DNA of 63,965 bases, counting the filler, from Folioceros fuciformis (taxonomy: Eukaryota): the NCBI GenBank assembly GCA_049999805.1. It is 7 parts of 7 records of this genome, joined end to end, with 100 filler letters (N's around TTAATTAATTAA, not from the genome) between each part and the next. Parts side by side here need not be neighbours in the genome. Positions count along the whole stretch, not along the records: positions 20,078 to 30,481 come from JBNGIO010000896.1; 6 more parts are not named here. One strand, written 5' to 3'. The notes beneath the pieces were generated by a model, which made no database searches, was not told the DNA's origin, and saw nothing but the letters and a program-made list of their open reading frames with translations. Shown one piece after another: positions 9,290 to 43,890 of the stretch. Made by a program: the position numbers and the translations under genes. Position 1 is the stretch's first letter; each line of letters starts with the position of its first letter.

Positions 9290-12200
9290 TGTTGAAATAG
9301 CACCATAGGCCTAGAAGAACTCCATAGTTCCTTACTTATGGTGCACAGGATGCTACATATATAGCCTTCAGGCGGGGCAACCCTCGATAAGGTAAGCCTT
9401 AGTCTCTAGGGTGCAATATCCTAGTATACCATGATATATCCTGATAACACTTAGGTGATAGATAACTACGAGTTCAATATGGGATAATCTACACTATCCT
9501 AAGTGTTGTATGCTCTTAATAACAATTCAGTTAGAGCTTGATTTCTGCCACTCAAACTCAAGCTCAGACTATTTGTAACACTCCAAGTAGTTCACGAAAG
9601 TGTAAGAACTTATCTCTACCTAGCGACTTAGTAAAGACATCTGCTACCTGGTCTTCGGTCTTCACTTGCCGAAGATCTATCTTCTCAGATAATACCGCTT
9701 CCCTGATGAAATGATAATGTACTTCTATGTGCTTGGAACGAGCATGAAACACAGGATTAGTAGCCAACCTCATGCTACTCATGTTGTCACAGTAGATTGT
9801 AACTTTGCTGTTCACTATATTTCCAAGATCATGTAGCAACTTCTACAACCAAGCTGCTTCACAGGCTGCCATTGCAGCTCCTCGATACTCTGCTTATGTG
9901 CTTGACAAAGCAATTGTCGGTTGTTTCTTGCTTTGCCAGCTGATCATACTACTTCCCAGATTGAATGCATATCCACTGGTTGATCTTCTGTCATACGCAC
10001 AACCAGCCCAATCAGCATCTGTATATCCTGTCAGTTCAAGATGCTTCCTATGCTCATAGAGCAATCCAAACTCAGTAGTTCCTTTCACATATCTCATGAT
10101 TCTTCTAACTGCATCCAAGTGCGGTTTCCTTGCGTTCTGCATGAATTGACTAATCAGTCCCACTGCATAACTTAAGTCAGGACGTGTGATAGTCAAGTAG
10201 ATCAAACTTCCGACCATCTGTCGATACATAGTCACATTTTCCAGCTCAGCTCCTACATCCATTTGCAGCTTAACGTTCTGCTCCAATGGTGTATCCATCG
10301 CTTTGCAATCTGCCATGCCATACTTCTGCAACATATCCTTAGCATATTGGTTTTGGAATAGCCACATTCCTTGAGGTGTAGACAACCTCAATTCCTAAGA
10401 AGTATTTGAGTTCACCAAGATCCTTCACCTTGAACTCTTTTTGCAGATTTGCCATGACATCTGCAATACCATCTACATCATCTCCTATGATGATCAGGTC
10501 GTCAACATAAACGACAAGACACACTTGTTCTACCTTGGTCTGTTTTACAAACAGAGTGTGATCTGCGTCTCCAATCACAAACCCTCGCTCCTTCAAATAG
10601 CTTGTGATACGAGCATTCCATGCTCTAGGTGCCTGTTTGAGTCCATACAATGCCTTCTTCAGTTTGCAAACGTATGTTGGAAACTTAGGATGAACATAGC
10701 CTTCAGGCTGTTCCACGTACACTTCCTCCTGCAACTCACCATTCAAGAAGGCATTCTTGACATCCATTTGCCATAACTTCCATCCTTTAGCTGCTGCTAA
10801 TGCTTTGACTCTCCTTACATTTGTCATCTTGGCTACTGGACTAAAGGTTTCCTCATAATCAAGACCATACTGTTGTGCATATCCCTTTGCAACCAACCTG
10901 GCCTTGTAACGCTCCAGCGTTCCATCTGACTTGAACTTCAGCTTGTACACCCACTTAGAACCAATAGGAACCTTGCCATCAGGCAATTGAACCAAATCCC
11001 ACGTTCCGTTCTCAACTAATGCTGAGTATTCTTCATCCATAGCTTGACACCACTTATCATCTGTCATTGCCTCAACAAAATTGGTTGGCTCCTTACAATC
11101 TGTGATCCTTGTCATATACGCATAATGTTGCGCATTGTAGCTTGTATAGGTGTACCTGTCAATGGGTTTCCTAACCCTCTTAGATCTCCTTGGTTCCGTA
11201 GTCTTCCAGACCATGGATTCACCGTTGGTGATCCACCATTGGTCACATCCTCACTCTTTGCTGGAGTACTCTTAACAGTACTCTCCCCTATGGGTTCGTC
11301 ATAGGGTAGTGCAAATGAGTTGCTATACCAGGAGGCTAACTCACCAAATACCACATCCCTGCTTATCAGGATCTCATGTGTGGATGACACATAACACTTA
11401 TATGCCTTCCTATTTCGTGCATACCCCAGAAAAACACTCTTCACTGCTTTAGGATCCAGCTTCCTACGCTTCTCATCAGGTACATGCACATATGCAATGC
11501 ACCCAAACACTTTCAAGTGCCTAATATCCGGCTTATAGCCATACAGTCTCTCAATTGGTGTAGCATCATGGATTCCTGCCGTAGGAGTTCGATTCAGTAC
11601 ATACACAGCTGTCATCACTGCTTCTGCCCAATAATCATTAGGTAAGCACTTCTCATTCAGCATTGCCCTTGCTATTTCCATGACTACCCTATTCTTTCTC
11701 TCTGCAACACCATTCTGCTGTGGTGTGTATATGCAAGTCAGCTGTCTTCGTATACCATGATCTGCAAGATACCTGTCAAACTCATTTGAGACATATTCTC
11801 CCCTTCCATCTGATCTTAGACAAGAGATGGAGCAGCTGAATTTATTTTCAGCATGCTTTTTGAAGTCCTTGAAAGACTCGAACACTTCATCCTTATGCTT
11901 CAGTATGTACAGCCACGTGTACCTGCTGAAATCATTAATGAAGGAGACATAGTAGTGGGCTCCTTCAAACAATGCATTCTGTGAAGGACCCTATACATCA
12001 GAGTATCAATTGTAAAGGTCTCGAGCTGTTCTACACGTGTCGCACAAATGGAAACCTTGACTGTTTTCCAAATTGACATGCAGAACACACATGACCAAGA
12101 TCAGCATACTTGAACTTGGACAATCCTTCCACCACGCTTTTCTGTTGCATAGATTTCAGCTTCTCTATGTTCACATGCCTAATCCTCTTATGCCATATTT

Positions 12201-14130
12201 CAACATCACGTATGGCACTTGCATCATTCGCAAACATTGCTTGCATTTAGCTCTGGAATGGATGCATCCAAAGTGAACATCCGTCCATTCCTACTACCTT
12301 TAGCAATCAGTTTGCGCCCTCTGTCATATTCTTCAATAAAGCATCCATCTTTATTGAATCGAACCTGCAGATTTTGTTTAGCCATCTGTCCAACAGACAA
12401 CAGGTTCTTGGTAATGGTTGGAACATGCAACACATCATGCAGACTCTTCTGCTGACCATTCGGCATCCTAAGAGGAACAATTCCTCTGTGCTTTATGTCA
12501 TGTTGTGTGTCATCTCCTGTACAGACATGGCCATGGGGACTTGCATCCATCTTGTTAAACCACTCGCCATGCGGAGTCATGTGGTTTGATGCTCCTGAAT
12601 CAATGTATCATCTCTCATCATTCTGCCCATCCTGTTGAGAAACATGTTGCATGGCGAACAACCTCTCTTGGTCATTTCCAGCATTACTAGAGGAGGCATA
12701 GTTCCCATGCTGCCTTCCTTTTCCTCTCATGTCTGCTTGCTGCTTATAGCAGTCCTTAGCAATATGACCAACCTTACCATAGTAGTAACACTCCTTGTCT
12801 CTATTGGAATGGTCATGAGATTGAAAAGAACCATCTATTCCTCTTGTGGCTCTACCTGCGCCTCTAAAACTTCCAGATTCTCTCTGGTCTTGCGCATTCC
12901 TCCACGCCAATTGTCTTGCTGATTTTGCGTGTTCCGAGCATCACCCCGTCCTCGGAATGAACCACGACCTATGTGGCCTCTCCCACGCTGGTTAGAAAAC
13001 AAAACCGTGTCTCTCCCTTGAGATATACCTGAACCTGTGTTCAGACCAAGCTTAACTTCCTCATGCAGCAACAAAGCAACCAATTCATCCCAACTTGGGA
13101 ACTCAACTCTCACAGAGATTGATGTGTCCCAGGACTTGTACTCCTTGCCAAGTCCGTTCAAAGTAATTGCAACCATGTCATCTTCCGTCACACTTGCACC
13201 GATTGTAGCAAGCTGATCAGCTATGGTCTTCACCTCTGTTGTATACACGAGTATGGATCTGCTACCTCGTGACAAGTTGTTGAACTGCTTCAACTGGATT
13301 TTCCTAGCATGTGTGACATTTCCATAGTTCCTCATGAGTATGTCCCATGCATCCTTCGAAGACTCACATCTCGTGATCTGTATGACCATAGCATCTAAAA
13401 TGCTTAAGGAGAGCCAGTGTAACACTTTACATGCTCTCTCAGTCCAATGCTTGTGAGCAATCTTTTGCTCCTATAATGGAGTACGATCCATCTCTCGTGC
13501 ACTCTCATCACCTGTGTAGATGTCCCAATAGCCTCTACCTACCAAGAAGTTCTTCATCCTGAACTTCCACAAAGCAAAATTCTTGTTATCCAACTTCTCT
13601 CCCACGACCTGAGAGATATTGTCTGATCCTTGCACATTAGCCATGATTTAGGCTCCTTTACACTCCTCCTGAGTCTCTCTCCCTCTCGCGCCTCTCGCGC
13701 GCTCTTGCGCCTGTAGCGCCTGTTGCGGCTTCCTACGCCGCCTACGCTGCTGCACCTCCTGTGCCTCTCAATGTCTTGTGTTGCCAGCCACCTTCACGCT
13801 CACGGCAATAGCCTCAAACCCCCGCCATAGCTGCAATGGCTGCCGGCGCTCTCTCCCGCTCTGATACCATGTTGAAATAGCACCACAAGCCTAGAAGGAC
13901 TCCACAGTTCCTTACTTATGGTGCATAGGATGCTACATATATAGCCTTCATGCAGGGCAACCCTCGATAAGGTAAGCCTTAGTCTCTAGGGTGCAATATC
14001 CTAGCATATCCTGATATATCCTGATAACACTTAGGTGATAGATAACTATGAGTTCAATATGGGATAATCTACACTATCCTAAGTCTTGTATGCTCTTAAT
14101 AACAATTCAGTTAAAGCTTGATTTCTAACA
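9290..14130 (-). mobile_element. Full-length degenerate Ty1/Copia LTR retrotransposon (element A)
   Basis: Two 261-bp LTRs (9290-9550, 13870-14130; 15 mismatches by manual count). 5-bp TSD GGACT (9285-9289 / 14131-14135). tRNA-iMet PBS TGGTATCAGAGC at 13858-13869. Gag/zinc knuckle, protease, integrase (TPQQNGVAERKNR), RT (MDVKNAFL, YVDD) and RNase H (ADVFTK) between 13644 and 9564, with stops and frameshifts. Confidence 0.96.
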
Positions 14131-14439
14131 GGACTGCCTCCGAATAACAAGGGGTTAATCCCCATACCCGGACACAATAGATGAAGCATCCATTTCGAGT
14201 CCTCACTTGCAGATGGTAGGCCCTGGTCCCTCCTATTCCCGCACGCACATGGATAGTAAGGTTAAGTACATGATCTCCATTTACATAGAGACCAGGAATA
14301 TAAGACTCCTCATCCATGTGCTTTAATACAATTTCGCCTCCTGCTGTAGATGAGGTGCTTACCACCTCCTCTCGTGGGCTACCCCTGACTGTCTGCTCTC
14401 TGTCCACCAAGGATGTTGGACCTTGCGGTTTGGCCCTAA

Positions 14440-17400
14440 AAAGAAAGGTCTGTCAAGTTCTAGGAATGTAATAGATCGAGCTAACACCACTCGTCATTCC
14501 TCAGGATGATATAATTTGTAAGCCTTAGACTGTTCACTGTACCCAATGAAGATGAGTGCTTGGGCTCTTGGATCCAGCTTCTTTCTCTTCTCCTCTGGGA
14601 TAAGAGCAAAAGCACGGGAACCGAAGACGCGCAAGTGCATCAAACTATGTTTCCATTTCCAGTAAGCCTCATATGGAGTCTTCAAAAGGACTGAACTGGT
14701 GAAGAGTCTGTTCAAAATGTAGATTGCAGCAACAATGGCCTCAGCCCGGTATTCTTGAGACAAGTTTGCCCACAATAGCATGCTCGTGGTCATGGCCAAT
14801 AAGGTCTGATTTTTCCTTTTTGCCACGCCATTCTGTTGTGGAGTATACGGAATTGTAAGCTGGCGTTGGATCCCCCTCTCTTGTAGGAAATTATCAAACG
14901 TCGTGTTTACAAACTCTGTTCCATTGTCAGTCCGAAGGTATTTAACAGACTGACCTGTCTGCCTTTCCGTAGTCAACAGCCAATCATGGAAGAGCTCAAA
15001 AGTATCACTTTTCAGGTGCATCAGGAATGTCCAAGTGTATCGAGAATAATCATCAGTGATGCAAAGGTAATAGATAAAACCGCTTAGAGACAATACATGT
15101 ATTTTGCCTGAGATATCTGCATGCACTAACTTGAGGACGACAAAAGCTCTGTAGGATGTTGAGACTGGAAAAGGATGGGCTTTCTGCTTGGGGACAATGC
15201 AACCTTCATAAGAAGGTAAATGTTTGAAAACCTAAGGCAATGGTTCGAGGTGACATTCTTGTAGTGACATGTCTACTAGCTTTCTCTGACCAAGCCGTGC
15301 ATGCCATAGGATAGCAAGACGTTGGGACTTTGTAGAGACAAGACTAGCCTAGTGTCCAAGGGTACAAATGTTCAATCTGTAAAGATCGTGGTCTAGTGTG
15401 CCCTTGAATGCTAGCATAGAAAGCTCTAGCCTCTTGTAGAAGGGACAATTATCCTTTTTGGCTAAGTTGCATCAATTTGCTGAGGGAGACCGGATTCTTA
15501 GCCATTGACGGCACAAAAAGGATGTCATCCAAGGTAAGAATTGATCCATCATGTAGAGTAAACTTGCACGTGCCACTGCCAAGGATCTGGAGACTGGATT
15601 GGTTTTGTTCGTCTCCCAATAGCACTCTTTCAGCTATTCTGTTCTTCTGAAGCAAGTAAAATTGTTCTTTACGTTTGCAGATGTTTGAAGTGGCACCAGA
15701 ATCGAAGTACCAACCATCCTCATCACATATGGAGCGAGGAAGACAGACTGTAAGTATCTTCACTATTGGCTTGGTGTCACCTGATGTCTTCTCCTTAATT
15801 GCAATAGTTGCAGAACCTTTAGGAGTCCAATTAGGTTCCCCTGCCTTTTTCTTCTTACATTCCCTGGCTTAATGTCTAGGTATACCACACCAATTGCAGC
15901 TTCCTGGACGCTTAGATGAACCAGCGGAATCTGAATTTTGGCTAGGTTTACCTCCAGCTTTGCCTTTTCCTTTGAATGGTTTTTGACCTGCCACTAATGC
16001 CTTCTATGTTTTACTCTTAGGAGTACCCGAAGAAAACATTCTGCTATGTTCTTCCTGATACAAGGCACCTATCACCTCTTCCAAGGTGATGTTTCCAGTG
16101 CCTCCAGCAGCTACAGCAGCATTGGCAGCTCTCAAAGGGTCATTCTGACTTGTGATAAAAGACAGATATGATGGAGGGAGACTTGCAAGAAGTTCAGCTA
16201 CAACATCGACCTCTTCCATCTTTGTTCCTGATAGAGAAGCCATCTATACTCTAAGGTGACGGAATTTACTTGTGAATGCTGCCACCTTATCCCCCTCTTT
16301 CATTTTCAAAGCATAGAACTCATGCTTTACACCAACAAGGGTTAGAACATTGGTAACTTTGTATGATTTCTCTAGCTGTGTCCAGATATCAGAGGCCTTA
16401 TCAAGGAACTCCACCTCAAGCACGAGGTCAGCATGTAGTCCTTCAATCAAGAGGGATATTGCAATACTATTCTGTTCGTCCCATTGAACAATCTGATCTA
16501 CAGACGGTGGTGGAGTTGCATTTGGATTTGGTTTTGGAATAGTTCCATCGATTATCTTCCACACATGTCGGGCTAACAAAGTTGACTTCATTCAGATATG
16601 CCATACGACATATTGTGTGCTGCTGGACCGATCTTTTTCTTTCAACTCTGCCGTGTACGTGGGTTTTGTGACAATTGTGGCCATGACAGCAGGCGGATTC
16701 TGGTTTTGAATCAGGGTAGTCATTAACTGTTTGAGACTAAGTGCTTGAACTAATTATAAGCTACTTAAAGCATCTATAGGCAAGCTAGACACTGCAGACA
16801 TATAAGACTAACAAGGTAAGCAGAGCTATGGCTCTAGCGACACAGGTCAGTCTAAAAATATGCCCTTTGATCCTACACTCTCTTAATTATGTGCATAGAT
16901 TAGTGTCTGACGTAATGTGTAAAAGAGGAATGCTGACTCAGGGATGCACGGACAGAATACACATTTGTAGCTATGTGAGTCTGTTTATGCTCATTGAGTG
17001 GTTCTCCTTCCAATACTCAAACAGGTTAGCAATTCAGAAAATTGAGCGCTGACAACCTCCTGGATTTGGAGATCTTGGTGGCGCATCCTTGATTTGGTGT
17101 GCTCTAATCGTGGCTGTCATCTCAACTATGCTCCAAAGGTGATTCTTGATTTTAATATCTCGTAGATGAATTGCCCTGAGAAAACGCTGATATTTCTCTT
17201 CAAATAGAAGCCTAAGATGCCTCTGTGTTTCGAGAAGCTGATCAACTTGTGCTTGGATTTGAGTAGGTGAGGAAGTAGAGGGGTCAGATCTAGGTACGTA
17301 GACTAGATCAGGGTTTTGTCCTCTTCTTTCACAACGTTCTCTATTCAGCCCATCCACCTCCTGATTTTTTCTTGATCTAGGACATGAATTGCCTTGTGCT

Positions 17401-17814
17401 GCAAAACGCTTTAGCTAGAGGGTTGGGTAATCATGCTCATAGAGATATAACAGTGTAGCTATTGGTACACTAGCCTGTTGTCGGGATGATGCACCTCTTG
17501 TAGTTTAGTGTATAGGAGGTCCCTGAAGAAACCATCTTCTACGTGAGCCACCCTACCTCGGCATTTTCTAGCAATGTCAGCAAAGTGTAGAGCATTTCTG
17601 CTCTGATACCATGTAGATTATCGGAGCACGATCATTTGACAAAAGTGAGAAGGCTTAGACACAACACACACTTGCGTAGCCAAAACAATGAATAATGAAA
17701 TTAATTAAAAAGTATCATGTGTGTCCATTAAATACCAGATTACCCTAATATGTCAAACAATATATATATCTAAGTTAACTAGGTTAAGCCCATAAATAGC
17801 TTAACCCTTTAACA
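14440..17814 (-). mobile_element. 3'-truncated Ty1/Copia element (element B): 5' LTR, PBS, long leader, gag-PR-IN
   Basis: LTR-like segment ~17612-17814, PBS TGGTATCAGAGC at 17600-17611, gag ATG at 16684, protease WYFDSGAT, integrase TPQQNGVA. No RT or 3' LTR found. Confidence 0.88.
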
Positions 17815-20077: not shown

Positions 20078-20605
20078 CCTTCCCAATGACAATTAACATG
20101 AAGTCCAATGTGGTGAAGTAAGTGGCCTTCCCAATGACAATCAAGATGAAGTCCAATATGGTGAAGTAAGTGGCCTTCCCGATTGCATCAAAAATCTCAT
20201 CAAGTGTGGGCATCGAATATCTCTCCATGGGCGTCACTTCATTTAGAACTCTATAATCCCCACACATGCACCTGTCCTTCCACTCCCCATTCTCATCCTT
20301 CTTCATGGGTAGCAATGTGGCAGTAGCATACTGAGATGTGGACTTCCTTATTAGGCCGGCTGCTGCCAATTCCTTGCACCTTTGATCCACAATCTCTCAC
20401 TCTGTGGGACTTAGTTGAAGTCTCCGCCTAAGCACAAGTTCATCCATGCTAGTTATGATCTTGAACTTGATCCAATCATACCTGCCCAGTTCTTCCCAAT
20501 TGAAGCAAATGCATGTCGATTATCCTCCAGCATCACACGGATCTTCTGTTGGTCTTCTTCCTTCACCTCCTGACATACTTGTCAGACATGTCCTACCAAA
20601 ACGCC
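20078..20605 (-). mobile_element. Ty3/Gypsy pre-RT linker and reverse transcriptase N-terminal fragment
   Basis: EELGRY...LSPTE.EIVDQRCKELAAAGLIRKSTSQYA...KKDENGEWKDRCMCGDYR.LN...YSMPTLDEIFDAIGKATYFTILD. Confidence 0.9.
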
Positions 20606-21378
20606 ATAAAGTTGCAAGGGGGGGGAATGTTGTGCCCTCCTTGTAAGGGGGCAGACCTTTTTGACGAAAATGACACCCTTCACAAAAGGGTAAAAATTGG
20701 TGGTAAGTACTTTGTGCCAACCTTGCGCTATACCTTGTCCTAGCCACAAACCCGCTTTTTTAAACATACAAGGTGTAGGCCCCCGGTTTGCGTTTGCTAT
20801 CCATGCTATGTCTAGAACACCACAATGACAGGGGCACCGGCCTGCCGGCATCCCTCCACTCACGTGGACCATACGTCACATGCATGCTTGGCACACGGGC
20901 TGCATGAAAGTGTTCTATTTACGTTCTGAAAGGTGGGTAGTCAAACATTTGGAACAGAATTATCACAACAATTAACAATAAAGTCTTTCACCCTAATCCT
21001 ACCCTAGTCCACAAGAGGGTCTGGTGCAACCTCAAAGTCAAATACCACAACCACACTCTGCAACCACGCTTCGTTGGTGACAAAAAAGTTGTCCACTTTT
21101 TCCAAAGCTTTGTCCTCCACTCGTGAATCTTCAAGGTCATCGTGGTCCGATGTGGGTGCTTCCCATACCCTATCCATCGTTTGTTGTCTTGGGTCCAACA
21201 CATCGTTTGTTTTCCTACTCCTCCGCTTTGACGTCAAGGAAACCACTTGCGCCTGGGAGGAGTCCTTCTAGCTAATACAAACCTCCTTTGCCCAGAATTG
21301 GGATGGCCCTCGTTGATGAGGTTCGAACGTCAACTCTTCATCTGCATCTTGAAGCACCTCATCATACCCTTGGATTCA

Positions 21379-21545
21379 CTAGGGGATGTACGTTGCGCAT
21401 TGCTTATCTCCTTCAATGGCTAGGCAGTTCCGCCGAGACAGCAATGTAGTCCCGTTGCCTGAACAAGCATCAACGATCCACTCTCCCTCTCTACTGAAGC
21501 TACAAACCAACCTATCCATCAACCCTTGTAGGCAAGCGGGTGTGG
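21379..21545 (-). pseudogene. N4/N6 (amino) DNA methyltransferase C-terminal fragment (motif X-I-II region)
   Basis: LMDRLVCSFSREGEWIVDACSGNGTTL..RNCLAIEGD matches the N6_N4_Mtase pattern L..LI...S..G..VLDxFxGSGTT...gR..i.iE.d. It resembles the copy at 27716-27900. Confidence 0.7.
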
Positions 21546-22519
21546 TATCCCTACCAGGCACCTGCTTACATGTATCGTGGCCACATCAATCCCACGGTCG
21601 TTGTAGGCTTCCTTGGAATCGCTCCCCTATGAGCCTGGTCAGCTACGTCTATTGTTCCCCTACAATAGTCAACCCTCCCAACCACGTACCTGCCAAACTG
21701 GCAACACGTCCAGTCAGTAGGTAGGCACCATTCCTTCACTTGGAAGGGCCCCAGTACCTCCCCCTGCACTCATAACCTTTTCCTCACAAGACTCCCTACG
21801 ACACCTTTCTCAACCCCACAATCTAGCTGCTCGTCTCCCTACGCCCAACGAGCAACAAGTTTTCCTCTGAGCCTGCTCAGCTCCCTCCAACTGTGTTTAT
21901 CGTTCACCTATGACATTCAACCTTCCCTAGCGCATACCTTCAACACCTCCAGTCAGTAGGAAGGCACCATTCCTTCACTTAGAAAGGCCCTAGTACCTCT
22001 TCCTACTGATTTCTAACTACCTACACCGAATACCCCTTTTCCTCACAAGTCTCCTTACAACACCTTCCACAACGATCCAACTGCTCGTCTCCCCACGTTC
22101 AACGACCAACAAGTTTTTCCTTGGGCCGGTTGCTACGTGCTTGTGCATGTTAGCGAGAACTTCAAGGGAGTCTTTCTCTAGAGTCTACCCTCAAGCCAAC
22201 AGTCACACATGTATTGCCACCCACCTACAGCAGCACAACAACCATTCACAAGGGAAGCAACTTGCAGGGGTGCCCATGGAAGAATATGAGCCCTCCGCCA
22301 AGCACTTCGACCACTGCAGAAGGGAGGCAGATTCTGAAGGTTCAGCTACTGGGCCCCCCTCCATTATTGGGATTTGTCTACTTTGGATCCACGAACTTCC
22401 ACCGTACCTTCCTCTGTGTGGATCTCTTGGGATATCCCGTGACTACCACGTACAGGTTTGGTAGGGAAGGATCCACTTGTTCTTCAACTTGAGGTTCCTT
22501 CCCTACGTAGGGTGAGGAT

Positions 22520-22655
22520 GTCCCCTTCGTAGGTAGGGTCCTTGTTGCTCCCTTCGTAGGTGGGTTCCCTACCCCTCTTCTCATAGGTAGGTTCCTTACA
22601 CCTCCTCTTGTAGGTAGGTTCCTTACCCCTCCTCTCGTAGGTAGGTTCCCTACCG
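22520..22655 (-). repeat. 27-bp tandem repeat encoding (K/R)EPTYxxRG-like units, ~5 copies
   Basis: REPTYERRG KEPTYKRRC KEPTYEKRG REPTYEGSN KDPTYEG in ORF 22484-22666. Confidence 0.8.
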
Positions 22656-23175
22656 TTCCCACCCATTGTTGTAGGTAGACTGCCTACCCCATTGCCATAG
22701 GTAGGGTGTCTACCATATAAGTACCTTCCCTACCTATGTAGGTATCTTCTATTTTCCCCACATAGGTACTCTCTCTACGTATGTAGGTAGACATCCTACT
22801 ACGTAGGTATCTTCTTATTCTAACCAACCAAAATAGAACTAAAAAAATCCATAAAAACCTTCACCAGTTGCTCACTACCTACCATGGACACTTGCCCATA
22901 AACCTACCTTCCACATGTCTCCCTTCGAAATGTTCTAAACAAAAAGAAACCAAGTTAGACTTTCCTAGACTGATTACCAAACTTTTCCGTTCCACAACCC
23001 TAGTGGTCACTGAGATGGGCAAACCACCCTTTTGTAATCGAAGAGGTACACATATTTCTTCACCATCATATCATGCGCAATGATAGATTTGCCATTGTTG
23101 AAGATTCATTGTTGTTGCCTTGGCATCATTGACGTTCAAACTTTGTTAATTCCCTCCTTCACACCCCATCCAACA

Positions 23176-23937
23176 GTGGAAAGCTCACAAGGGTGGGCAA
23201 GGTCTTGCGAGGTTGACCGGGTGTATCAGTGGGATGCGAGGGTGGTCGCTCAATAGCAAGCACGGGTCTGGGCTCATAGTTTGCGTCCAATACACCTTGT
23301 AGCTGCAAGGTGGGATTCCGCTTCATGTTGCGAAGAGCAAGCTCCAAGACTGAACCAAGGATGAGGTTGGTCTAGTAGTTGCGTAGCCTATGCGCATAGC
23401 TGCCCACTTGGACAGCATCGATAAGAAAGGGAACACCAATATGGTGCTGCACAACGGCCATGTCCTCACAGACATAGTCCCTTTTGTCAAGCTGCACTAG
23501 GGTGTTCTCGAGAAGGTAGTCACCCTGTGGGTTCTCCTGCTGCACCCATGCCAAGATTTGGTGCAAGTCTAGGAACAGCCCAATGTGCTGGTCCTCCAAC
23601 CCGGCATTGCTTGTGAGAACCCTTGGCAATCCCAACCAGCAATCAGCATGTCGATGGGTCCCAAAGCCTGGATATGGCCTTGTTGGATGTACCTGACATC
23701 TAGAGGCAATGCTGCAAATGTGGCAGACAATGCTGACTCTGGCAATTGTGTGGGAAATCTGCTGCGGAGCTCCTGTAAACGATGAGTAGCCATCTATTGT
23801 GCTTCCCCACTACTGTCATAGTATATATAATGCAGAATGGGGAGGCCCGCTTTGAGCAAGGCCTCCATGCCAGTGCAAATACCTCTGAACAGTTCGACCA
23901 GAAAGAGGCCTGCACTTGGGATGGGCCAGGCAATCAC
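23176..23937 (-). pseudogene. C5-cytosine DNA methyltransferase domain inside a Gypsy pol polyprotein (degenerate)
   Basis: Motif I LVELFRGICTG, motif IV DMLIAGWDCQGFS, motif VI YLLENT and motif VIII GSYAHRLRNY*TNL occur in canonical order, followed by a PTLVSF segment. In frame with the upstream protease-linker ORF across one TAG. Confidence 0.88.
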
Positions 23938-24787
23938 CTAAGCACTAACAATATGCTCCTGTGTGGGATCCTTGAGCCCCCGCTGCAACATAGCTTGCAC
24001 CTGTTGAACATGCTCATGAGGATCCTGCAGCATGCTCTCAACTAGTGTACGGTGATTGGCAGCCTTGATAAGATCTGCCAACTTGCAGGTGATTGTGGTG
24101 TTGCTAAAATAGCTGTCATAGTGTTGCTCCTCCTGCTCAGACTCCTGGTGATCGTCATCATGCATATGGTTGCTGGCCAGCATAATTGCTCTGTTGTCCG
24201 GGCCTGCTACACATGCTTGCCGTTCCACAAGTGTCGCGGTGTCAGCCTCTGCCATGCCATACAGCCATAAGGGTAAGTGTGCTACCCTCCTTCCACCTTG
24301 CTTCCAATCTAGCCGGTAGTACGCTTGCTCTGTCCAATTGTCCACACTCAAGCCTGGTGGAAACAAAAATTCTTGACCCAACAGCACGTCAAAATTTGTG
24401 GCTGTTGTCACCAAGCATGGAAGGCTCAGTGTCATGGCATTTGGAGTGCCAGGCTTGAGTGTGATGTCCATAGGGTGGACAGTCTCTCCCGAGACTGGTT
24501 CGATGGCTCCTATGTCATCCTTATGTTCCAAGGAGAGCTCTTGAGCGCTGATCCACTGAGCTTGAGCCTTGCTGCTAAGGCTTTGCTAATTATCACTCGT
24601 TGGGCACTAGTGTCCAGCAATACCACTCTCGGAGCATACCCATTCACCGTGATGTGCCCAGCATCATTGTCAACAAGTGCATTGCCGACTCTAACTGCCA
24701 AGCGGTTAGTGGGCTGAATCCTTGGAGAGCTCATGGGTCAAGCAGGTTGTCCTCCAGCTGCTGCAGCATCAAGCATGTATGCTAGTA
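23938..24787 (-). mobile_element. Ty3/Gypsy gag C-terminus, aspartic protease and linker
   Basis: VVLLDTSAQRVII (DTG-like active site) and NFDVLLGQEFL (C-terminal retropepsin motif). One frameshift near 24520. Confidence 0.8.
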
Positions 24788-25924
24788 CACTCCAGTAGGT
24801 ATGCCTACAACCGTCCGTGGCAGTTAGGCCCCGCATTATGCATGATGGTAGAGTACTTCTACATGGACGGATTGTCCTGACTATCACTTCGGTGGCCAAG
24901 CCGGCGGGACAGAATCCAGCATGCCAAACACTTTGAAAATTTGACTCCATTGTAAATACTAATTTTTTCCAATCCACTCCGTCTCATCGAACTCCGGAAA
25001 ATATCTCCGGTGGACCATCATAGTAAGGCTCTAATAGGTATTTTTGGGGCTGACAGCAACCTACACGCCAAGTTTGAGCCAAGCACGCCAATGTTGATGA
25101 CGTTTAGGTAGCGCATGGGGTTAAAAAGTGGAAGAGAGTGCACCCCAAAGGAGAGAACAAGAGCTCTGGGAAAAGGAGGACTGCACAAGAGGCCCCACGA
25201 CGATAGGAAATCGATATGGGGAAGTCCAAACCAAAAGGAATATCAAAAGACATCGAAGCTGGGCACAAGACAACTTCGTCGACAAGGGAAGCAAGCTTTA
25301 GGCATGTTTCTAGAAGCCAGGGCTGGAACGAGACCAAGGGACAGGAAAATCTAGGTGGGGCAGCCTTGGAGATGGACCCAATGATGATCATCATGGAGGA
25401 GCTAAGTGTTCTACCAGGGATGGACTTGGAAAGCCCATTTACAAGGAAAGAGGAAAAAGCATTGTACGACATATATGTTGCCTTGCCTAAATAGGATCTC
25501 TTAGACAAGGAGTGGTGTGTCCACAAAGAGGGGCTGATTGCACCTTGCCCAACTTTGATCCCATCCCCGGTTCTTTGGGTGAATGGCTACCTTGATGCTT
25601 CCAAGACCTAGAAAATCGTTGTGAGCTACATCCTTTGGGTGTGGAAGTACAAGGTTCAAGCCCAAGTAAGAGTGAAAATGCTAATATGTCTTGTGAAGAA
25701 GAAATTCTTTCAACACAAGTCTAATGTACATTACCTCCTCACGTTGTCCACCAACAAGCTAATAACTCGCCGATGCAACAATGCGGACTTGTGAAACGGC
25801 CTAGGAAATGCGTTCACAATGGACAAGGTGAGCTTTTGGTTGAAGTTTTGCGTTGGATGCTTTCTAATCAAGTAGCACTTGGTGTCCCCAACGTCGCACC
25901 AACGACAATGCAAGGGTGCTGGTG

Positions 25925-26135
25925 TGCCCCTGGGCGCGCCAGGGAGGATGTAGAGCACTAGTGCACTCATGGGTGCGCCAGTGAGGATGTAGAGCTTCTG
26001 GTGTACTAGTGAGGATGTAGATCCACTACCTCGCCCTTGGGCCCGCTAGGGAGGAGTTAGAGCCACGGGCATGCCCTGGGTGCTCTAGAGAGGAAGGATA
26101 GCCTTTGGTGCGCCCTTGGGCATGCCATGCAGGAG
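25925..26135. repeat. Degenerate GC-rich ~38-bp tandem array
   Basis: Recurring ...gggYgcgccagNgaggatgtagagc... units. Confidence 0.6.
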
Positions 26136-26320
26136 GGATGGCCGTTTGTGCGACCGTGGTTGCCTTAGGCCATTTACTGCGGTCATGTTCAGGCTTGGGC
26201 TATTGGCTAAGAATGTAAGCCCAAACCATCCATCATCTTCTAACCTTTTTCCATGTTGTCGTGCAGACATTTGAGGCAGTACTTACCTTCATCAAGAAAG
26301 AGATCGTCATTGGATTGATC

Positions 26321-28626
26321 ATGACAAAGATGGCACACGAGGCCGAGGAAGCAAGATAGAACGTAGGAGATCACCTCAACATTCAGCGCAATCAGTTTGC
26401 GACAAGTTCTCGTGAACCGTCATTTGCAGCCGGCGAAGATGAAGTCAACCTTCGAGCATCCATGACATTGATACAAAAAAGGATATTTGTGAGGTGAAGT
26501 TGAAGAAGTATACAACGATGCTAATAGTGGGGACTAGATGAGGAGGAACCCAAAGAGAAAGATCCCAAAGACCAACCGAGCGAAGAAGACGAAGACGAAA
26601 ATGTGTTTCAAGAGATGGCTAGTGAAGGCGCATCAAAGCGGTCCTTGAACATCTCTGAAAAAGCCAGTGCAAAGACATTATTGCATAGCCTTAATGCCTT
26701 AGGGAGAAAATCATAGGCGATCCTACATGACACATTGGGTGAAGAAGAGAAGTTTGACTCGGCGTCTAAAAGCGATGATGATCTTGAACAAATTGTCGCA
26801 AACTCCCCGGTCATTCGTAAAGGGACAACGAATGTGAAGGCCAGCAAGAAGAAAAAACAAGGCAATATGAAAGAGGCTTCGACATGAAGAGTTAAAACGA
26901 AGGTTATCTTGACTGATAGCGATAGAGTTGGCAGGGCCTTGCAGCATAATGATCCTATCAATCTCGTGAGGGAGTCTGTGCATCGCAAATGATGTATTCC
27001 GCATACAGACATGGTCGCCATAAATATTTTGTGCTCAACAGATTATCTAACCAAAGATGCCCAAATAAGGCGAGTTGACAAGTCATGGGGAAAGCATGTG
27101 CTACGCGAGATAAATAAGGGGCTAGTACAGAAAGGCATTATGCCCTTGATGTGCATGATCAACCCTAAGGAGTGCCCGAGGAAACTAATAATACAGGCCA
27201 TATCCTTGTCCCATCGTTCTGTGTAGTTTCCTCTTGGCATATCCAATATGAGCAAATATTGGATATGGCCTGTATTATGATTGGCCCAATTTGCTCATAT
27301 TGGATATGCTAAGAGGAAACTACGTAGAACCATGGGACAAGGAATTTATAGCCGATGACCTGGAGGAGGTAATGGAAGGATTTTTCAAAGTCATCGAGTG
27401 CCAAACATTCAAAGTTGTATGCATGCACGGACAAGATCAGATGTAGGATGTGACAAATGTCTTGCGGAAGTGGTGTGTGAAGGGAGGTGTACAAACTATG
27501 GTACGGAAAAAAGACCTCGTCGCAAATGAGGGGCTATACAAAAACTATGAGTACATGACAATAGGATTTGGGGTTCATCCATTGAATGAAGATATTCAAA
27601 AGAGCAATGCATTGAGCAATAGTGCGGCAAAGGAGATTGGAGCAATGCTTGGGATTATCAAGCACAACGTTGTCATAAAAAACTGATCAATGTGTCGAAT
27701 GATGGCTGAGTTGTAAATCCATATTAGAAGCCACTCGAGTTGATGGTTCTTTTACGTGGGCTCTTGAGCGATGAAGGAGAATGAGTAATAGATGGATGCT
27801 ATGGGAGCAAAAGTGGTGTGCTTTTGCATTAATGGAAGGGTGGAATTGTATTGCCATTGACCAAGACCAATGACATACCATCTTCATCGAGCAAAGAATC
27901 ACGAGCCATGAAGTGTTTCGATCGTATGAGGAAGAATTGACAACGAAGCCTCGTACACGAGGGCATTCACTTTCTTTTGCTCGAGAGCTTTCTGTGGAAG
28001 GTCATTGAAACCAAGGGCGCACGTAATGCAAATGGTTGAAGGGAAGACTGCACCAATGGACCTCCAAGAACTCAATCAAACGTAAGAACATGCAAAAAAG
28101 AAGACGAAAGGAAGGGGAAGGGAATTTGATCATGCACCTGTAGAGGATTTGGGAAAGGGAGCGCCGCGACACTCCGATGACGAGACCTGGGACCTTGAGC
28201 AACTAGAAACTTTCATGTCCAACCCATCATCCATGTTTACGAAAGAAGACCACCAAGACCGTAGTTTGTTATCGGGCCACAAGCTAATGAGAGACACATA
28301 ATTGTCCCCATGACAGAGCACCAAGACTCTCCACTGCATGAAGGGTAGTTAGTGGCCGATGATAGCAATGTAGATGTGAAAGAGCTTTGGCGTGCACAAG
28401 TGTGCGCCATGAATGGCTATGATAATTGTAATACATGCTTATGTTTGATGGTAATGCCATCAGCTTGGCATGTCAAAAATCTTTGCTTCAAAGAATGTCT
28501 ACTTTGAAACCCATAGTGTACTATGTGTCTAGCGTGCCCAACCTAGAAATGACAAAACTTAGCGATCAAGGAGGGTGGGAAGAGGGGAAACCGTGTGCAC
28601 AAAACAGACCCGAATTATTTCAGTAG
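26321..28626 (+). pseudogene. Beta-class N4/N6 DNA methyltransferase gene with acidic N-terminus and putative ParB-like domain (degenerate)
   Basis: Manual translation: QIRRVDKSWGKHVLREI...PLMCMINP (~27011-27185); LLILDMLRGNYVEPWD (27291-27338, motif IV position); VVNPY*KPLELM (27710-27745, motif X); SDEGE*VIDGCYGSKSG (motif I); ALMEGWNCIAIDQD...FIEQRI (to 27900). Stops and frameshifts present. Confidence 0.8.
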
Positions 28627-28648
28627 GCCTAGTTGGCCTACTATGAAA

Positions 28649-29650
28649 TCACTCGTGTGCATTCATGTCCTTGGTTGTTACTAGCAAGTAGAACAACCAC
28701 TTGATACGCTCCTTGCTGGGAAAATGCCACATAACCTTATGAGGCACATTTTCCCTCACAAGCCTTGGCTTCCCATACTTAGCGCATGTTGTGTTCACCT
28801 TGTATGGGCCTCTATATAATATGCAGTAATTTTGGCAAGCAAATATTTATGAACCTTCATTCCCAAACTACCAGAACCTTTTTTGCGGCTTCGATGCTTG
28901 TGGGCAAACAATTGGGAGTGGGCAAAAATTCATTGAAAGCACCCCGCAGCATGTCAGTAACAACCACATTGGACATGCCATGCCTTGTTCAAAGGCCGAG
29001 TATCAGCAACATCCATGTCAACATATTTTCTTTTAAGTGCACTCATTGTCTACAACCCATAATAGAATTCTTCGCCTTAGCACGACACCAAGCATCTACC
29101 ACCTGGCCACACATGTGGTTTACATTGTCTATAAATTCTTGTGCTATGTTCCAATGGGGAAGGACATCCCTTGAATCACTAGCTTCCGTGTTCACCTCGG
29201 ATGTGCCATCGATATCACTAACATTCGAGTTTGACATATGGTTTGGATTTTCGTTTGACAAGCTGTCCATTTCATTTTCAGCACGTATGATGGCTTCCGT
29301 ACCCTCGTTTTCCAACGACAGGCTATCGTCATTTGGGTGGGTGTCATTCACCACCATATTCACATCTCTGCCAGCCTGTTACAATTAAAACCCACCGTCA
29401 TACTATGCTTTTGTTTTCATGCAAACATGTACTACGGACAAACCCATCTAATGAACCTAAAGCCATCTAAGCAAAGCATCCTCCATGTTTTGGTGAATGT
29501 AGTAACGGCAAGAGAGTGTGGTAGGATTAGCGTGGGATGGATGCAACTTCGCACATTTGCGGTATGGACACCGCATGTACAACCCCGTTCTTTGCGCTCA
29601 TGGCATGGTGGCGGGCCCATGTTCAGCAAATCCCCCACAAACCGCGTCGT
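28649..29650 (-). mobile_element. CACTA (En/Spm) TnpD-like transposase N-terminal relic
   Basis: MRCPYRKC...LDGF..W (transposase-associated domain), then RHGMSN...LPTPNCLPTSIEAAKKVL and ACQNYCILYRGPY....C....R....VPHKVMWHFP..RIKWLF, the conserved TnpD N-terminal blocks. Confidence 0.82.
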
Positions 29651-30581
29651 TCTTCAGCAAGCATACTTAGGCTTGGCCTTGCTACCTGAAATTGTGCACA
29701 TGATCAGAAGGCGAGGAATAAGCCTTAACAAATCTAGACAAGTGCGGAAGCAATGACCACATCCGAAGTCACACCCAAATTCACCCGCACTGTAGATCAT
29801 GCACAACCGGCACACCTCGTTCAGCTTGCTCAATCATGGTCGAGTTTGCGGGAAAGTGAATTCCCCATAGACAAAAACTTGTGATCTAGTCTACCAAAGC
29901 AAATCCAATGATTTGGTCTACAAGCTCTCTAGTTTCTGAAGCTTCCTGCTCACCGCCGTCGTTGTAGAGCGCGTGAACTTTGTGCTGAAGGTTGGTGGAC
30001 GTGGGCGCAATTAGCCAAATCCCCTTTTCATTGCAACTCCTCCACATGACAACTCTCATACAACAGCTAGCAACCACCACACTCTCAGCCTCAACTCCCA
30101 ACTCACTATAGAAGGTCGTGTGTATCGGAACTCCCCTCGAAATAATCAAACAACAGGGACTTGGTAGTTTTTTTTGTTTTGATCAATAGAGTGATTGAAT
30201 ACGCTATGGGCAACCTCTTTTATACCCAAAAGTCTCCTTGGCCCATGGCAGTTTCACTCTTCAGCGTGGTTTTGGCTACTAATAATAGGTCCTCGGGTCT
30301 TGACAATGGGAGAGGGCCGGACTCAAAGTCCCTTGGACATTGGCATTAGTGTTCCTTAAATATTGTTTTTTGCAATAACTCATCCTTGGCTCATGGCCTA
30401 CGAGGACGGGCTGGGCCAGGAGTTCCTTGGCTCTTGGTGGTTTGGAATAACCAGGAGCCTACATAAGAAGGAGGGGGGTATNNNNNNNNNNNNNNNNNNN
30501 NNNNNNNNNNNNNNNNNNNNNNNNNTTAATTAATTAANNNNNNNNNNNNNNNNNNNNNNNNNNNNNNNNNNNNNNNNNNNN

Positions 30582-31288: not shown

Positions 31289-33811
31289 TCAATCAATTCT
31301 TTTTTGTGTTTGGAGCTCAGCGCTCTGTCTGGTTGAAATTCTAATTCTATCATCTTGGCCACTATCTGGAGCGAGAATGACATCGCTTAAATCCATATTA
31401 TGCACTTGCGACGTGAGCATGTCTACCATAGCGTAGACTTGGGAACCCTGGCTGTGGCTTTCGTCTCCTACCAGGAACATATGCATCTCTTCCGCCAACT
31501 CAACCCAACTCTGACCTGGTTGCTTCCATGCGCCTGCACGAGCCCTTCGCTGCTCGATGTCGTTCACATCGTCCCACCTTTGGGCGTAAGCATATATACT
31601 CGACATGAGCCCATATGCAGCGCAGTGTTTTGCGTCCAAGCTCACAGCTTCGTCAAAGGCGCGTCTTGCAAGCTCCACGTTGCCATGCTTCCTGCACGCC
31701 CCGAGCAATGACAGCCATATTCTTCGATCAGGCCGCATGGGCATTTTGCGAATCATCTCTTTTGCTCCGCACAAGAGTCCTGCACGTCCCAGTAGGTCAA
31801 CTATGCTCACATAATGCTCAGGTGTTGCCGGGATGCCAAACTCTTTGCCCATGCGTTCAAACAACTCCACCCCTTTATCCACCATGCCGGCATGACTGCA
31901 AGCAGACAGCAGGGACACAAATGTCACTGAATCCGGCTGATTGCCAGCTAGCTGCATTTCTTCCAGGCATTGTAGGGCCATCTCACAATCGCCTCCCCGG
32001 GCATACCCGGCAATCAGTGCTGTCCATGACACCACATTGTGTTCGGGTATGGAATCAAACAAGCGCCTTGCATCCACCATGCTGCCACATTTGCCGTAAG
32101 CATGAACCAGAGTGTTTGCCAATCGCAGGCTGGCTTGCAGACCAGTTTCAGCAACAGCCTGATGGATCCCAAAGCACATCTTCAGAGCTCCGGTGCTGCA
32201 GCAAACCTTTAGGATGCTCAGAAAGGTCGCCTCGTCAGGCCTTACCCCAGAATGTTGCATCTGGGCATATAATTGCACAGCCTTTTCATATTGGTCTTGC
32301 TCGGCATATCCTGCAAGCATGGCATTCCATGATACTAGATTTCGATGGGACAGAGAGTCGAACACATGTCGTGCATCCGCTATGCTTCCACAGGTAGCAT
32401 ACATGTGCACAAGAGTGTTACCAACGAACATATCTGAGCAACAACCAGTAGTCAAAGCTTCAGCGTGGATCCACTTGCCTGTCTGTAGGGCGTCTACTTT
32501 CAGTAGATGGTAATCTATGAGGGTCTCCTTCTCCTCACCAGCCACAAGGCCACATGCTTTTAGCGAGCTCACAAACGTCCACTCATCAGGGATGACTTTG
32601 CACTGCTGCATCTGAGAGAAAATGTGCAAAGCCTCTTCGCCCAGATTCTGCATCACGTACCCCGCAATCATTGCATTCCAGGCTGCCACGTTGCATTGGG
32701 GAAGTGTGTCAAACACATACTGTGCATCCATCATGCTTCCACACTTGGCATACATGTGAATGAGAGAAGTACCAACAAAAGCATCCAGCTGAAACCCCAT
32801 CCTGATTATGTCCCGGTGCAAAAGCTTGCCCATTCCCAGTGAGCCTGCCTTCATGTCTCGCCCATCCACAATCGTCCTCTGCTCCCCCGAAGCCAGACTT
32901 GCACAAGCCTTCAGCAAGCTCACAAAACATCTAGCCTGAGGCCTCACACCTTCTTTCTGCATTTGAGAATAGAGCTGCAGGGCTACGTCACCCTGCTCGT
33001 GCTGAGCATATCCTGCCATCATCGCAGTCCACGCTACAACGCTACGTGGGGACAAAGCATCAAACACAGCCCGAGCATTCATGATGCTTCCACATTTTGA
33101 ATACATATCTACCAACGTGTTGCTAACAAACAAGTCTGATGCATAACCCATGTCAGCTGCTTGCGCATGTATGAACTTGCCCCTTTGTAGAATGTCCACT
33201 TTGACAAAATGCCCGTCCACCAACATGCCTGTCTCCCTGGCAGCAAGGCTTGCACAAGCTTTAATTAAGCTTACAAACGTTCGGTCATTAGGCCTTATTC
33301 CGTCTTCCTGCATTTGCCCATAGAGCTCCAGAGCTTTACCAGCTTGCTCTTGTTGAACATATCCAGCAATGATGGCTGTCCATGAAACCACATCTCTCCG
33401 AGGCATGTTGTCGAACACATCTTGTGCAGCCACACTGCTCCCGCACTTGAAATACATATTTACCAACGTGTTTCCGACATACAGGTCATCTTCATACCCA
33501 TGCTTGACAATGTGCGAGTAGAGACGGTTCGCTTGCTCAAGGTCTCCTGTGCTTCCACAATCCTTGATTAGACGGACAATTGTGTACTTATTCCTGGACT
33601 CCACCCCCTGGAGCTTATGGTTCCATTCTCGAGTCTGATTCAAATGTACATTGTCCACTAGGCAAGCTGAAATTCCCACTCTTGGGAATCTGCACACTGC
33701 AGAATTTCCACTCTGGAGACTCCGCAGTGGAGAGAACACGGTTCCACAAATTCCTGCCATTTCCAATACCCACGCTTGCGGGGCTGCAAGCCAGGACTTT
33801 CCACTTGCCAT
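31289..33811 (-). CDS. PLS-class PPR protein with E1/E2/E+ C-terminus, intronless, probable transit peptide
   Basis: 840-aa ORF with five P-L-S triplets, E domains and WKQPGQSWVE PG box. No HxE/CxxC DYW core. Confidence 0.95.
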   Translation of the reverse strand: MASGKSWLAAPQAWVLEMAGICGTVFSPLRSLQSGNSAVCRFPRVGISACLVDNVHLNQTREWNHKLQGVESRNKYTIVRLIKDCGSTGDLEQANRLYSHIVKHGYEDDLYVGNTLVNMYFKCGSSVAAQDVFDNMPRRDVVSWTAIIAGYVQQEQAGKALELYGQMQEDGIRPNDRTFVSLIKACASLAARETGMLVDGHFVKVDILQRGKFIHAQAADMGYASDLFVSNTLVDMYSKCGSIMNARAVFDALSPRSVVAWTAMMAGYAQHEQGDVALQLYSQMQKEGVRPQARCFVSLLKACASLASGEQRTIVDGRDMKAGSLGMGKLLHRDIIRMGFQLDAFVGTSLIHMYAKCGSMMDAQYVFDTLPQCNVAAWNAMIAGYVMQNLGEEALHIFSQMQQCKVIPDEWTFVSSLKACGLVAGEEKETLIDYHLLKVDALQTGKWIHAEALTTGCCSDMFVGNTLVHMYATCGSIADARHVFDSLSHRNLVSWNAMLAGYAEQDQYEKAVQLYAQMQHSGVRPDEATFLSILKVCCSTGALKMCFGIHQAVAETGLQASLRLANTLVHAYGKCGSMVDARRLFDSIPEHNVVSWTALIAGYARGGDCEMALQCLEEMQLAGNQPDSVTFVSLLSACSHAGMVDKGVELFERMGKEFGIPATPEHYVSIVDLLGRAGLLCGAKEMIRKMPMRPDRRIWLSLLGACRKHGNVELARRAFDEAVSLDAKHCAAYGLMSSIYAYAQRWDDVNDIEQRRARAGAWKQPGQSWVELAEEMHMFLVGDESHSQGSQVYAMVDMLTSQVHNMDLSDVILAPDSGQDDRIRISTRQSAELQTQKRID

Positions 33812-34524
33812 TCCATCATCTCATCTTGTTGGTTCGGTCCTCAATGTCACAAAAGTCTCCGACGGTCCTACTCTTCGTGCTGAAGCTGAAGCGCTTGTCA
33901 AAAGCCAGAGAGAGCATATCAATACTCCGATGACCGAACTAGGAACCAGGAATTCTCCACTCACTGTTGAACTGTGCAACCTTCACCATAGCAGCTGCAT
34001 CCAAGGATAAACTACCGTGGAAATACGCGGGGAGCGTGCCAGGCACCAGATTGAGCTCAGTTCCATCCTCGATTTTTGCAACAGGATCTGTCAACTGCGA
34101 ACACACATAAGCATGCTGAGAAGCGGACGTATTATCCTCCACGCCTTTAACCCGGGCAGTTGAATTCAGTCTTGCAACGTTTGGTGTTTGCTGCACTGAA
34201 GAAAAAAAGGGCACGGTAAACCGCCGTATGGTTTCCGTTTCTGTTACCGGAGTGTGCACCGGAATTGAGGTTCCAGCTGAGCAGATCGTACAATGCTGGC
34301 GTGTGGTGTCACGCAGACTGGCGGCAGCCAGGTCCTAGTCGATCGGACACATAATATACTCCAAGTCAATCACATAGAGCACTGGTCTTCTCATCTTTCG
34401 GGCTCTATGGCCAAGGCATGGCTTAAGAGGCAAACGTGCCTTCGCTTGATTTCCGAGCGACAGGTCGCCATCAGATACACCAACCAGCTTCCTAGACAAC
34501 ACTCTCGATGTCCGCAATTGTTTG

Positions 34525-43790: not shown

Positions 43791-43890
43791 NNNNNNNNNN
43801 NNNNNNNNNNNNNNNNNNNNNNNNNNNNNNNNNNTTAATTAATTAANNNNNNNNNNNNNNNNNNNNNNNNNNNNNNNNNNNNNNNNNNNN

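Follow-up and report, generated by a model that had tools for sequence, protein, structure and literature searches.

Methyltransferase cargo of Gypsy retrotransposons and of a Sola-like DNA transposon in a cluster of decayed elements of Folioceros fuciformis

Transposable elements (TEs) that carry DNA methyltransferase (MTase) genes are known, with C5 enzymes in algae and amino-MTases in DIRS retroelements and virus-borne Mariners (PMC5890265, PMC4738411, PMC3627910, PMC12344493). In KnitGypsy-Dnmt3 of Klebsormidium nitens, an intronless C5 MTase under purifying selection lies in the Pol open reading frame (ORF) of a Gypsy element with DIRS-like repeats, and retrotransposon DNMTs have de novo CG activity (PMC5890265). 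Phage proteins that join ParB to an N6/N4 MTase, and beta-class enzymes such as M.RsrI and CcrM, belong to PF01555 and have a permuted order in which motif IV comes before motif I (PMC4738411). Prokaryotic-type beta-class amino-MTases also occur in eukaryotes as the host genes DN4MT1 of Marchantia (bioRxiv 2021.02.12.428880) and N4CMT of rotifers (PMC8885841), which have a (T)SPPY motif and make N4-methylcytosine (4mC). Sola DNA transposons have terminal inverted repeats (TIRs), a long transposase and a 4-bp target-site duplication (TSD; PMC3627910, PMC3845634), and Sola2 is known with cargo (Fanzor1). Here we describe a cluster of MTase relics in a 63,965-nt window of the Folioceros fuciformis genome (the whole stretch analysed, consisting of small contigs strung together via N-spacers) and the elements from which they derive, Gypsy retrotransposons with a C5 MTase and a Sola-like DNA transposon with an amino-MTase.

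The cluster lies at positions 20078-30481, on a single gap-free contig of 10,404 bp (G000:C896, hereafter C896) with N-spacers on both sides, in a genome assembly of 87.2 Mb and 7,240 contigs (Table 1). All three MTase relics that a preliminary description had reported on one gap-free contig exist there and, as it proposed, come from separate elements: the C5 relic from a Gypsy of family G1, and relics A and C from two amino-MTase elements. Since the reverse transcriptase (RT) fragment at one contig edge comes from another Gypsy-DNMT family (G2), C896 holds pieces of four MTase-bearing elements. The same description had counted three different MTases; both types that it named, C5 and N4/N6, are present, but the relics are of two kinds rather than three. 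A single query matched both halves of relic A as well as relic C, and the two form sister clades in one tree; on sequence grounds they are therefore subfamilies of one amino-MTase family. The C5 relic (reported at 23176-23937, minus strand) and relic C (about 27280-27900, plus strand) were confirmed, whereas relic A (about 21380-21545) is present on the minus strand but proved larger and split around a Copia solo long terminal repeat (LTR). All three relics are full of stops and frameshifts and are dead. Scanning the full contig against Pfam in six frames detected no MTase, so separate fragments were scanned. The C5 relic alone matched PF00145 weakly (E 0.053), relic A matched PF01555 weakly (E 0.015) and relic C matched no family, while five of seven sister MTase-core ORFs with a PF01555 score passed the cut-off. 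C896 is very probably a pile of dead TE pieces, made of a C5-carrying Gypsy and two amino-MTase Sola-like subfamilies, whose closeness is likely owed to abundance and deletions.

Table 1. Features of contig C896, in window coordinates.
Feature	Coordinates	Strand	Evidence
RT N-terminal fragment, second Gypsy-DNMT family (G2)	20078-20597	-	71% aa to C6046 RT vs 49% to G1 (tblastn, 20148-20513)
Decayed right TIR, subfamily-A amino-MTase transposon	20598-20629		highest-scoring local match on C896 to the C6081 TIR
Relic A, C-terminal part, motif I DACSGNG, stops	21223-21526	-	67-72% nt to A copies C5066, C5918, C6274, C5966
Copia solo LTR (TG..CA), 1,470 bp, inside relic A	21527-22996		5-bp TSD ACCCT at 21522-21526 and 22997-23001
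Relic A, middle part	22997-23184	-	query residues 93-156; starts abruptly at deletion junction
C5 (Dnmt3-type) MTase domain of Gypsy family G1	23185-23925	-	88-89% nt to C5138, C5407
Aspartic protease of the same G1 Gypsy	24295-24788	-	PF13975 E 1.3e-5; homology to C5138 stops at 24788
Internal part, subfamily-C amino-MTase transposon (middle ORF and start of ParB-like gene)	25063-27179	+	82-84% nt to C6281
Internal deletion of ~1.3 kb with 55-nt fold-back filler (27203-27257 inverted from 27289-27343)	27180-27287		inverted repeat I22; comparison to C6281
Relic C, amino-MTase domain, motif IV DMLRG, stops, two frameshifts	27288-27894	+	66-74% aa to C3404; tree clade C
3' part of element C, ends ~9 nt before the AAC-type terminus	27895-28622	+	83-84% nt to C6281, C5066
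CACTA (EnSpm) transposase N-terminal fragment	28688-28982	-	36% aa, E 3.6e-9 vs C5931 CACTA transposase region

Searches of the assembly with the amino-MTase returned 152 matches (150 listed; 150 of 180 candidates scored), and other searches 98 of 113 candidates and 110 of 150 scored, which together amount to at least 132 loci in 87.2 Mb. The copies have sharp common ends, and full copies measure 6-8.6 kb. Inverted ends starting with AAC and an exact 4-bp TSD were found in four of 29 regions (CTCC in C6333, ATAA in C6081, TCAT in C3332 and ACTT in C5882), with a fifth case, CTCT in C6272, read by eye. On the strand opposite the MTase gene lies a gene for a DUF7869 protein (92 matches of 106 candidates), which we take to be a Sola-like transposase, Pfam and Atlas returning DUF7869 only. 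Sola transposases have a DDD-type core. DUF7869 occurs within 10 kb at 21 of the 132 amino-MTase loci (22 pairs against 2.4 expected; upstream and divergent in 20 of the 21; p 1e-11). Trees built from 31 fragments of the MTase and 15 of the transposase gave matching groups, in which the A and C transposases did not resolve. Median dN/dS of the MTase was 0.15, 0.11 and 0.15 at dS of 0.3-0.7, 0.7-1.5 and >1.5 (27, 15 and 62 pairs) and 0.39 at dS below 0.3 (14 pairs; 341 of 459 pairs were saturated), compared to 0.23-0.26 for the transposase. The amino-MTase loci are thus cargo of a Sola-like DUF7869 transposon, in which the MTase gene, composed of a ParB-like part and a beta-class domain, diverges from the transposase gene.

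We call the carrier Sola-like on the strength of motifs known from Sola elements and of the 4-bp TSD (PMC3627910, PMC3845634). Unlike Sola, its ends start with AAC and its cargo is a ParB-like amino-MTase gene; because its five TSDs depart from the AWWT-type target preference of Sola1 and Sola2, it was filed under neither. The literature searched described no Sola or DUF7869 element with an MTase, Repbase, supplements and most subscription papers lying outside its coverage (those of PMC4738411 and PMC5890265 could contain proteins of this type), and PMC10952607 contributed nothing on an amino-MTase DNA transposon. Three subfamily-B elements (C6225:11424-11700, C5931:231388-231917 and C2463:10798-11047) contain a short palindromic repeat array, possibly an intron or a nested foldback, between the ParB-like and MTase parts. 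Between the transposase and the MTase gene, a middle ORF (25192-25860, plus strand, in element C) matches no Pfam family and is conserved within subfamilies, with faint similarity between subfamilies C and B (18%, E 0.033). A search for longer homologs with alignment A2 found none, which is weak evidence.

Judged by its sequence, the cargo enzyme is a beta-class amino-MTase (PF01555). Motif IV precedes motif I, matches among PDB sequences include M.RsrI (E 5e-5) and the predicted model has a pLDDT of 90. In contrast to the phage enzymes, M.RsrI and CcrM, it is eukaryotic and transposon-borne, with a DxPR motif. DN4MT1 and N4CMT are host genes, whereas this enzyme is multicopy cargo with an Asp-type motif; neither SPPY nor a single-copy host gene was found. 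In 36 contexts from this genome, motif IV reads DLPRG 18 times, DMPRG 4, DVPRG 2, DAPRG 1 and DMLRG 1, the remainder having W, H, Q or a stop, so that D-x-P-R occurs in 25 and D-x-P-Y in none. As these remaining residues match CpG decay of an Arg codon, Arg stands in place of the usual Tyr. The copies of this genome thus show D[LMVA]PRG or its decay products rather than the catalytic (D/N/S)PP(Y/F/W), to which the DIPY and DFPY of outside relatives are nearer.

Those relatives comprise 50 proteins at E <=1e-10, including Gb_37443 of Ginkgo and GBG86584.1 of Chara braunii; most have DIPY, DFPY or DLPY, and three have DLPR. One full-length relative is similar to two streptophyte clusters and also to phage clusters of ParB_N plus N6_N4_Mtase, the latter with a score of 0.86-0.87, which is below 0.9 and makes the likeness a lead. 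The term ParB-like is likewise a lead, since the N-terminal part of the gene has no Pfam ParB match. DUF7869 adjoins the MTase gene in three of 80 metagenome loci, many of which are short or prokaryote-like. A contig of another organism (L170) carries a 7,594-bp element with perfect 26-nt TIRs that begin with AACAC, an open transposase frame of 897 aa and an intact-looking, intron-split MTase with a DIPYG motif; the MTase of a further locus (L180) is also split by an intron.

In live elements, the ParB-like plus amino-MTase protein would be an accessory that selection on the element maintains (dN/dS 0.11-0.15) and that most likely binds or marks the element's own DNA, which may serve escape from silencing or the timing of transposition. 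The DIPY form of other plants is a predicted maker of N6-methyladenine (6mA); the DxPR form found here, in which the aromatic residue is absent, may have weak enzymatic activity or may bind DNA. The strongest competing explanation, which we find doubtful though worth serious attention, is that the amino-MTase is a passively captured fragment or a catalytically dead passenger that plays no part in DNA modification. The prevalence of D-x-P-R and the complete lack of D-x-P-Y would suit a dead passenger, as would the small number of matches that cover the domain without a stop (four of the 150 listed, so that the gene is largely a fossil in this genome) and the argument that DIRS-borne amino-MTases are inactive (PMC4738411). 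However, a dN/dS at or below that of the transposase, together with congruent trees, excludes passive drift, outside relatives retain DIPY, DFPY or DLPY, and the modelled protein folds at a pLDDT of 90. The DxPR form of this genome may be dead but selected.

A bolder extension, which we put forward only tentatively, is that a Sola-like lineage has carried a phage-type ParB plus amino-MTase gene across streptophytes and lays 6mA or 4mC on its own DNA; with active Gypsy-DNMTs this would make two independent transposon-written marks, and DxPR would be a new catalytic variant. The breadth of such a lineage is suggested by the protein relatives of Chara braunii and Ginkgo and by the intact-looking elements in contigs of other plants.

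For the C5 MTase, one search yielded 109 matches out of 117 candidates and another 127 matches, with 125 of 178 candidates scored. These correspond to at least 117 loci, which fall into two or more families and include some that are 98-100% alike. Together with the amino-MTase loci, this bears out the proposal that MTase cargo is very common among the TEs of this genome. In family G1, the C5 gene sits between protease and RT, and the copy in C5196 retains an intact frame of 2,386 aa that encodes gag, protease, DNMT, RT, RNase H, integrase and a C-terminal PHD finger in one ORF; its DNMT domain matches PF00145 at E 2e-4 (21.3 bits, slightly below the cut-off of 22). The C5 relic shares 62-64% aa identity with this polyprotein, has one frameshift plus stops and a truncated C-terminal end, and reads ELFRGICTG at motif I and GWDCQ at motif IV. 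GWECQ was found at motif IV in 19 of 26 C5 loci of this genome (one of them with a stop) and in 31 of 97 outside homologs. Those 97, matched among 4,015 candidates with the DNMT region, are nearly all Gypsy polyproteins; the named ones come from green algae (chlorophytes, Closterium), and no Klebsormidium name is among them. Split direct repeats in the layout A-ORF-B-A-B, examined in G1 only with one complete case in four regions, are 96-97% identical in C6246, and the A repeats of C6012 are 98.9% identical; this is the DIRS-like arrangement described for KnitGypsy-Dnmt3 (PMC5890265). The DNMT domain is under purifying selection (median dN/dS 0.25, 0.17 and 0.10 at dS >0.3, 9 pairs), with a dN/dS of 0.94 at dS <0.3 (4 pairs) and 15 of 28 pairs saturated.

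The C5-carrying Gypsy is therefore of a known kind, the KnitGypsy-Dnmt3 type, from which it differs, compared by description, in its copy number, its two or more families, its GWECQ motif and its likely land-plant host. Intact, near-identical copies exist in both families, and the G2 members in C6046, C25, C6226, C6056, C1012 and C3393, with DNMT domains 98-100% identical, were likely active recently. Because such copies exist, and by analogy to the enzymes of PMC5890265, element-encoded CG methylation is plausible in this genome; the likely targets of the Gypsy DNMT are CG sites in new cDNA copies. The TE-encoded methylation layer suggested by the preliminary description is a hypothesis: the relics on C896 are dead, and young intact Gypsy-DNMT copies are found elsewhere in the genome.

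On C896 the elements are joined by deletion more than by clean nesting. The G2 RT fragment has a 48-nt tandem duplication at the contig edge (tandem repeat 20078-20180); a single interrupted Gypsy formed of this RT and the C5 domain was rejected, as the families differ. Directly upstream of the RT, at 20598, lies the end of the subfamily-A transposon, where the TIR scored 36 against a 95th percentile of 33 and a maximum of 40 in 200 shuffled contigs, and where 20599-20685 matches the ends of three further A copies at 81%. The MTase sequence of relic A continues on the far side of the Copia solo LTR (108 matches among 40 scored of 271 candidates), two examples of which enclose a Copia integrase in C6212. 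Relic A starts abruptly at 23184; its motif IV, ParB-like part and transposase are therefore gone, and it is fused there to the truncated C5 domain with a shared sequence of at most 1-2 bases. Past 24788 the gag and repeats of the G1 Gypsy are gone as well, and the ~270 bp at 24789-25062, between the G1 Gypsy and element C, match no locus retrieved. Element C spans 25063-28622 overall; in its relative C6281 the DUF7869 transposase lies upstream on the opposite strand. The G2 Gypsy was probably the first to arrive, followed by element A beside its RT and then by the Copia LTR within element A, the youngest insert being this ordinary solo LTR; a deletion would then have joined the middle of the A MTase to the G1 C5 domain. 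Full elements measure 6-9.5 kb each and here 1.1, 1.6 and 3.6 kb are left, so that deletion likely also explains the short spacing.

Short-read unitigs of run X1 cross the junctions at 20598, 23184, 27180 and 28622 with zero differences at a depth of 9-13 (single-copy), one of them (22974-23355) covering the junction of relic A with the C5 domain, and a unitig of run X2 crosses the fold-back copy of element C; both runs represent one sample, probably the assembly's own, and are hence not independent. No bridging unitig for the 24788 junction or the Copia LTR is among the 24 pieces listed of 1,088, and no single unitig record covers all of C896.

We then took a census in which matches within 800 bp were merged, adjacent fragments of one copy were dropped by hand, and LTR-only matches (query positions 1-27 being LTR sequence) and one sub-cut-off DUF row were left out. 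It comprised 132 amino-MTase, 117 C5, 78 DUF7869, 134 Harbinger, 15 CACTA and 150 Copia loci (the best of 2,920 Copia RT candidates), all lower bounds. Of the 117 C5 loci, only two, on C896 and C5931, lie no more than 7 or 10 kb from an amino-MTase locus, giving 3 pairs where a uniform model predicts 2.5-3.5. Permuting the labels over the partner positions led to a mean of 1.16 (p = 0.32; p = 0.54 without C896; p = 0.10 for the triple), and the controls were 0/117 for C5-Harbinger and 1/117 for C5-Copia. C5 and amino-MTase loci are thus not enriched near each other genome-wide. The co-location above chance for which the preliminary description had proposed such a census with permutation was not found, nor was its suggestion of preferential insertion of these elements into each other upheld, Harbinger being a commoner neighbour of amino-MTase loci than C5 (7/132 vs 3/132). 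The MTase pieces lie close together likely because both groups are abundant and intervening DNA has been deleted.

Directed insertion, in which MTase-bearing elements target each other, for instance with the PHD finger of the Gypsy as a guide or with methylation by the cargo as the signal, is an unlikely source of the cluster. It would account for pieces of four MTase-bearing elements on one 10-kb contig, for two further mixed cases among 21 regions, for the PHD finger that ends the G1 polyprotein and for the self-clustering of amino-MTase loci (~3.5-4 fold over uniform). Yet the shuffled-label test gives it no support with or without C896, Harbinger-Harbinger and C5-C5 self-clustering are equally large (2.4-3.5 fold), full amino-MTase copies also sit in Copia (C6333), and the youngest insert on C896 is itself a Copia LTR. 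Same-family clustering of amino-MTase loci is about as strong as that of Harbinger; C5066:47-9810 holds three and C3897:1443-3143 two amino-MTase copies (subfamilies A and C), nested or abutting.

Several observations weigh against our account of abundance and deletion around a Sola-like carrier. For the carrier, the L170 element has no TSD (the contig is perhaps a collapse of several copies), and in L199 the transposase lies downstream of the MTase gene on the same strand. For the co-location, a C5 locus with two amino-MTase neighbours was seen once against a uniform expectation of 0.026, which rises to 0.1-0.6 only on the assumption that 50-20% of the genome contains all TEs. Gypsy-DNMT pieces occur in two of the 21 amino-MTase regions (~0.36 Mb; one a co-occurrence already known), compared to Copia in ten, despite the 2,920 Copia RT candidates; a Gypsy-DNMT gag fragment lies inside element C6281; and at C5931:227757-236061 (L098-L099), the only other close C5/amino-MTase pair, a subfamily-B amino-MTase element is inserted immediately behind the RT in a Gypsy-DNMT of a third lineage. 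The census was domain-based, its Copia control a best-scoring subset, and mild mutual targeting may be compatible with such a test. That C896 is a chimera of unrelated repeats joined by the short-read assembler is highly improbable: the assembly is fragmented, the junctions at 23184 and 24788 lack TSDs, the whole contig is in no one record, and 24788 and the high-copy LTR are unbridged among the pieces listed, but four junctions are bridged without differences at single-copy depth and the MTase sequence picks up again beyond an LTR with a perfect TSD.

Where element C breaks off and the CACTA fragment starts there is a short hairpin (28615-28650). The CACTA fragment is unrelated to the MTases; a CACTA carrier for relic C was rejected, Transposase_21 lying within 10 kb at none of the 132 amino-MTase loci. 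A Tox-SGS Pfam match at 29000-29220 was below cut-off in a frame full of stops and was not used. Elsewhere in the window are PLS-class PPR genes at 31289-33820 (minus strand) and 3-547, in which a 351-nt (117-aa) repeat recurs with unusual regularity and whose E motif would suit a land-plant host. The window also contains a full-size, intron-containing ABCB-type transporter gene at 38664-43842 (minus strand), and two nested Copia elements at 9290-17620, with 257-nt direct repeats at 9290 and 13870 (95%).

The co-location itself is ordinary, and the cargo is the point of interest. In the literature searched we found no account of a cut-and-paste transposon of plants with a stably retained amino-MTase gene under purifying selection. 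The young, intact Gypsy-DNMT copies extend the Klebsormidium case to a likely land plant and can be assayed. If the DIPY form is active, plant genomes would have in it a testable source of 6mA or 4mC, and transposons a means of writing marks of their own.

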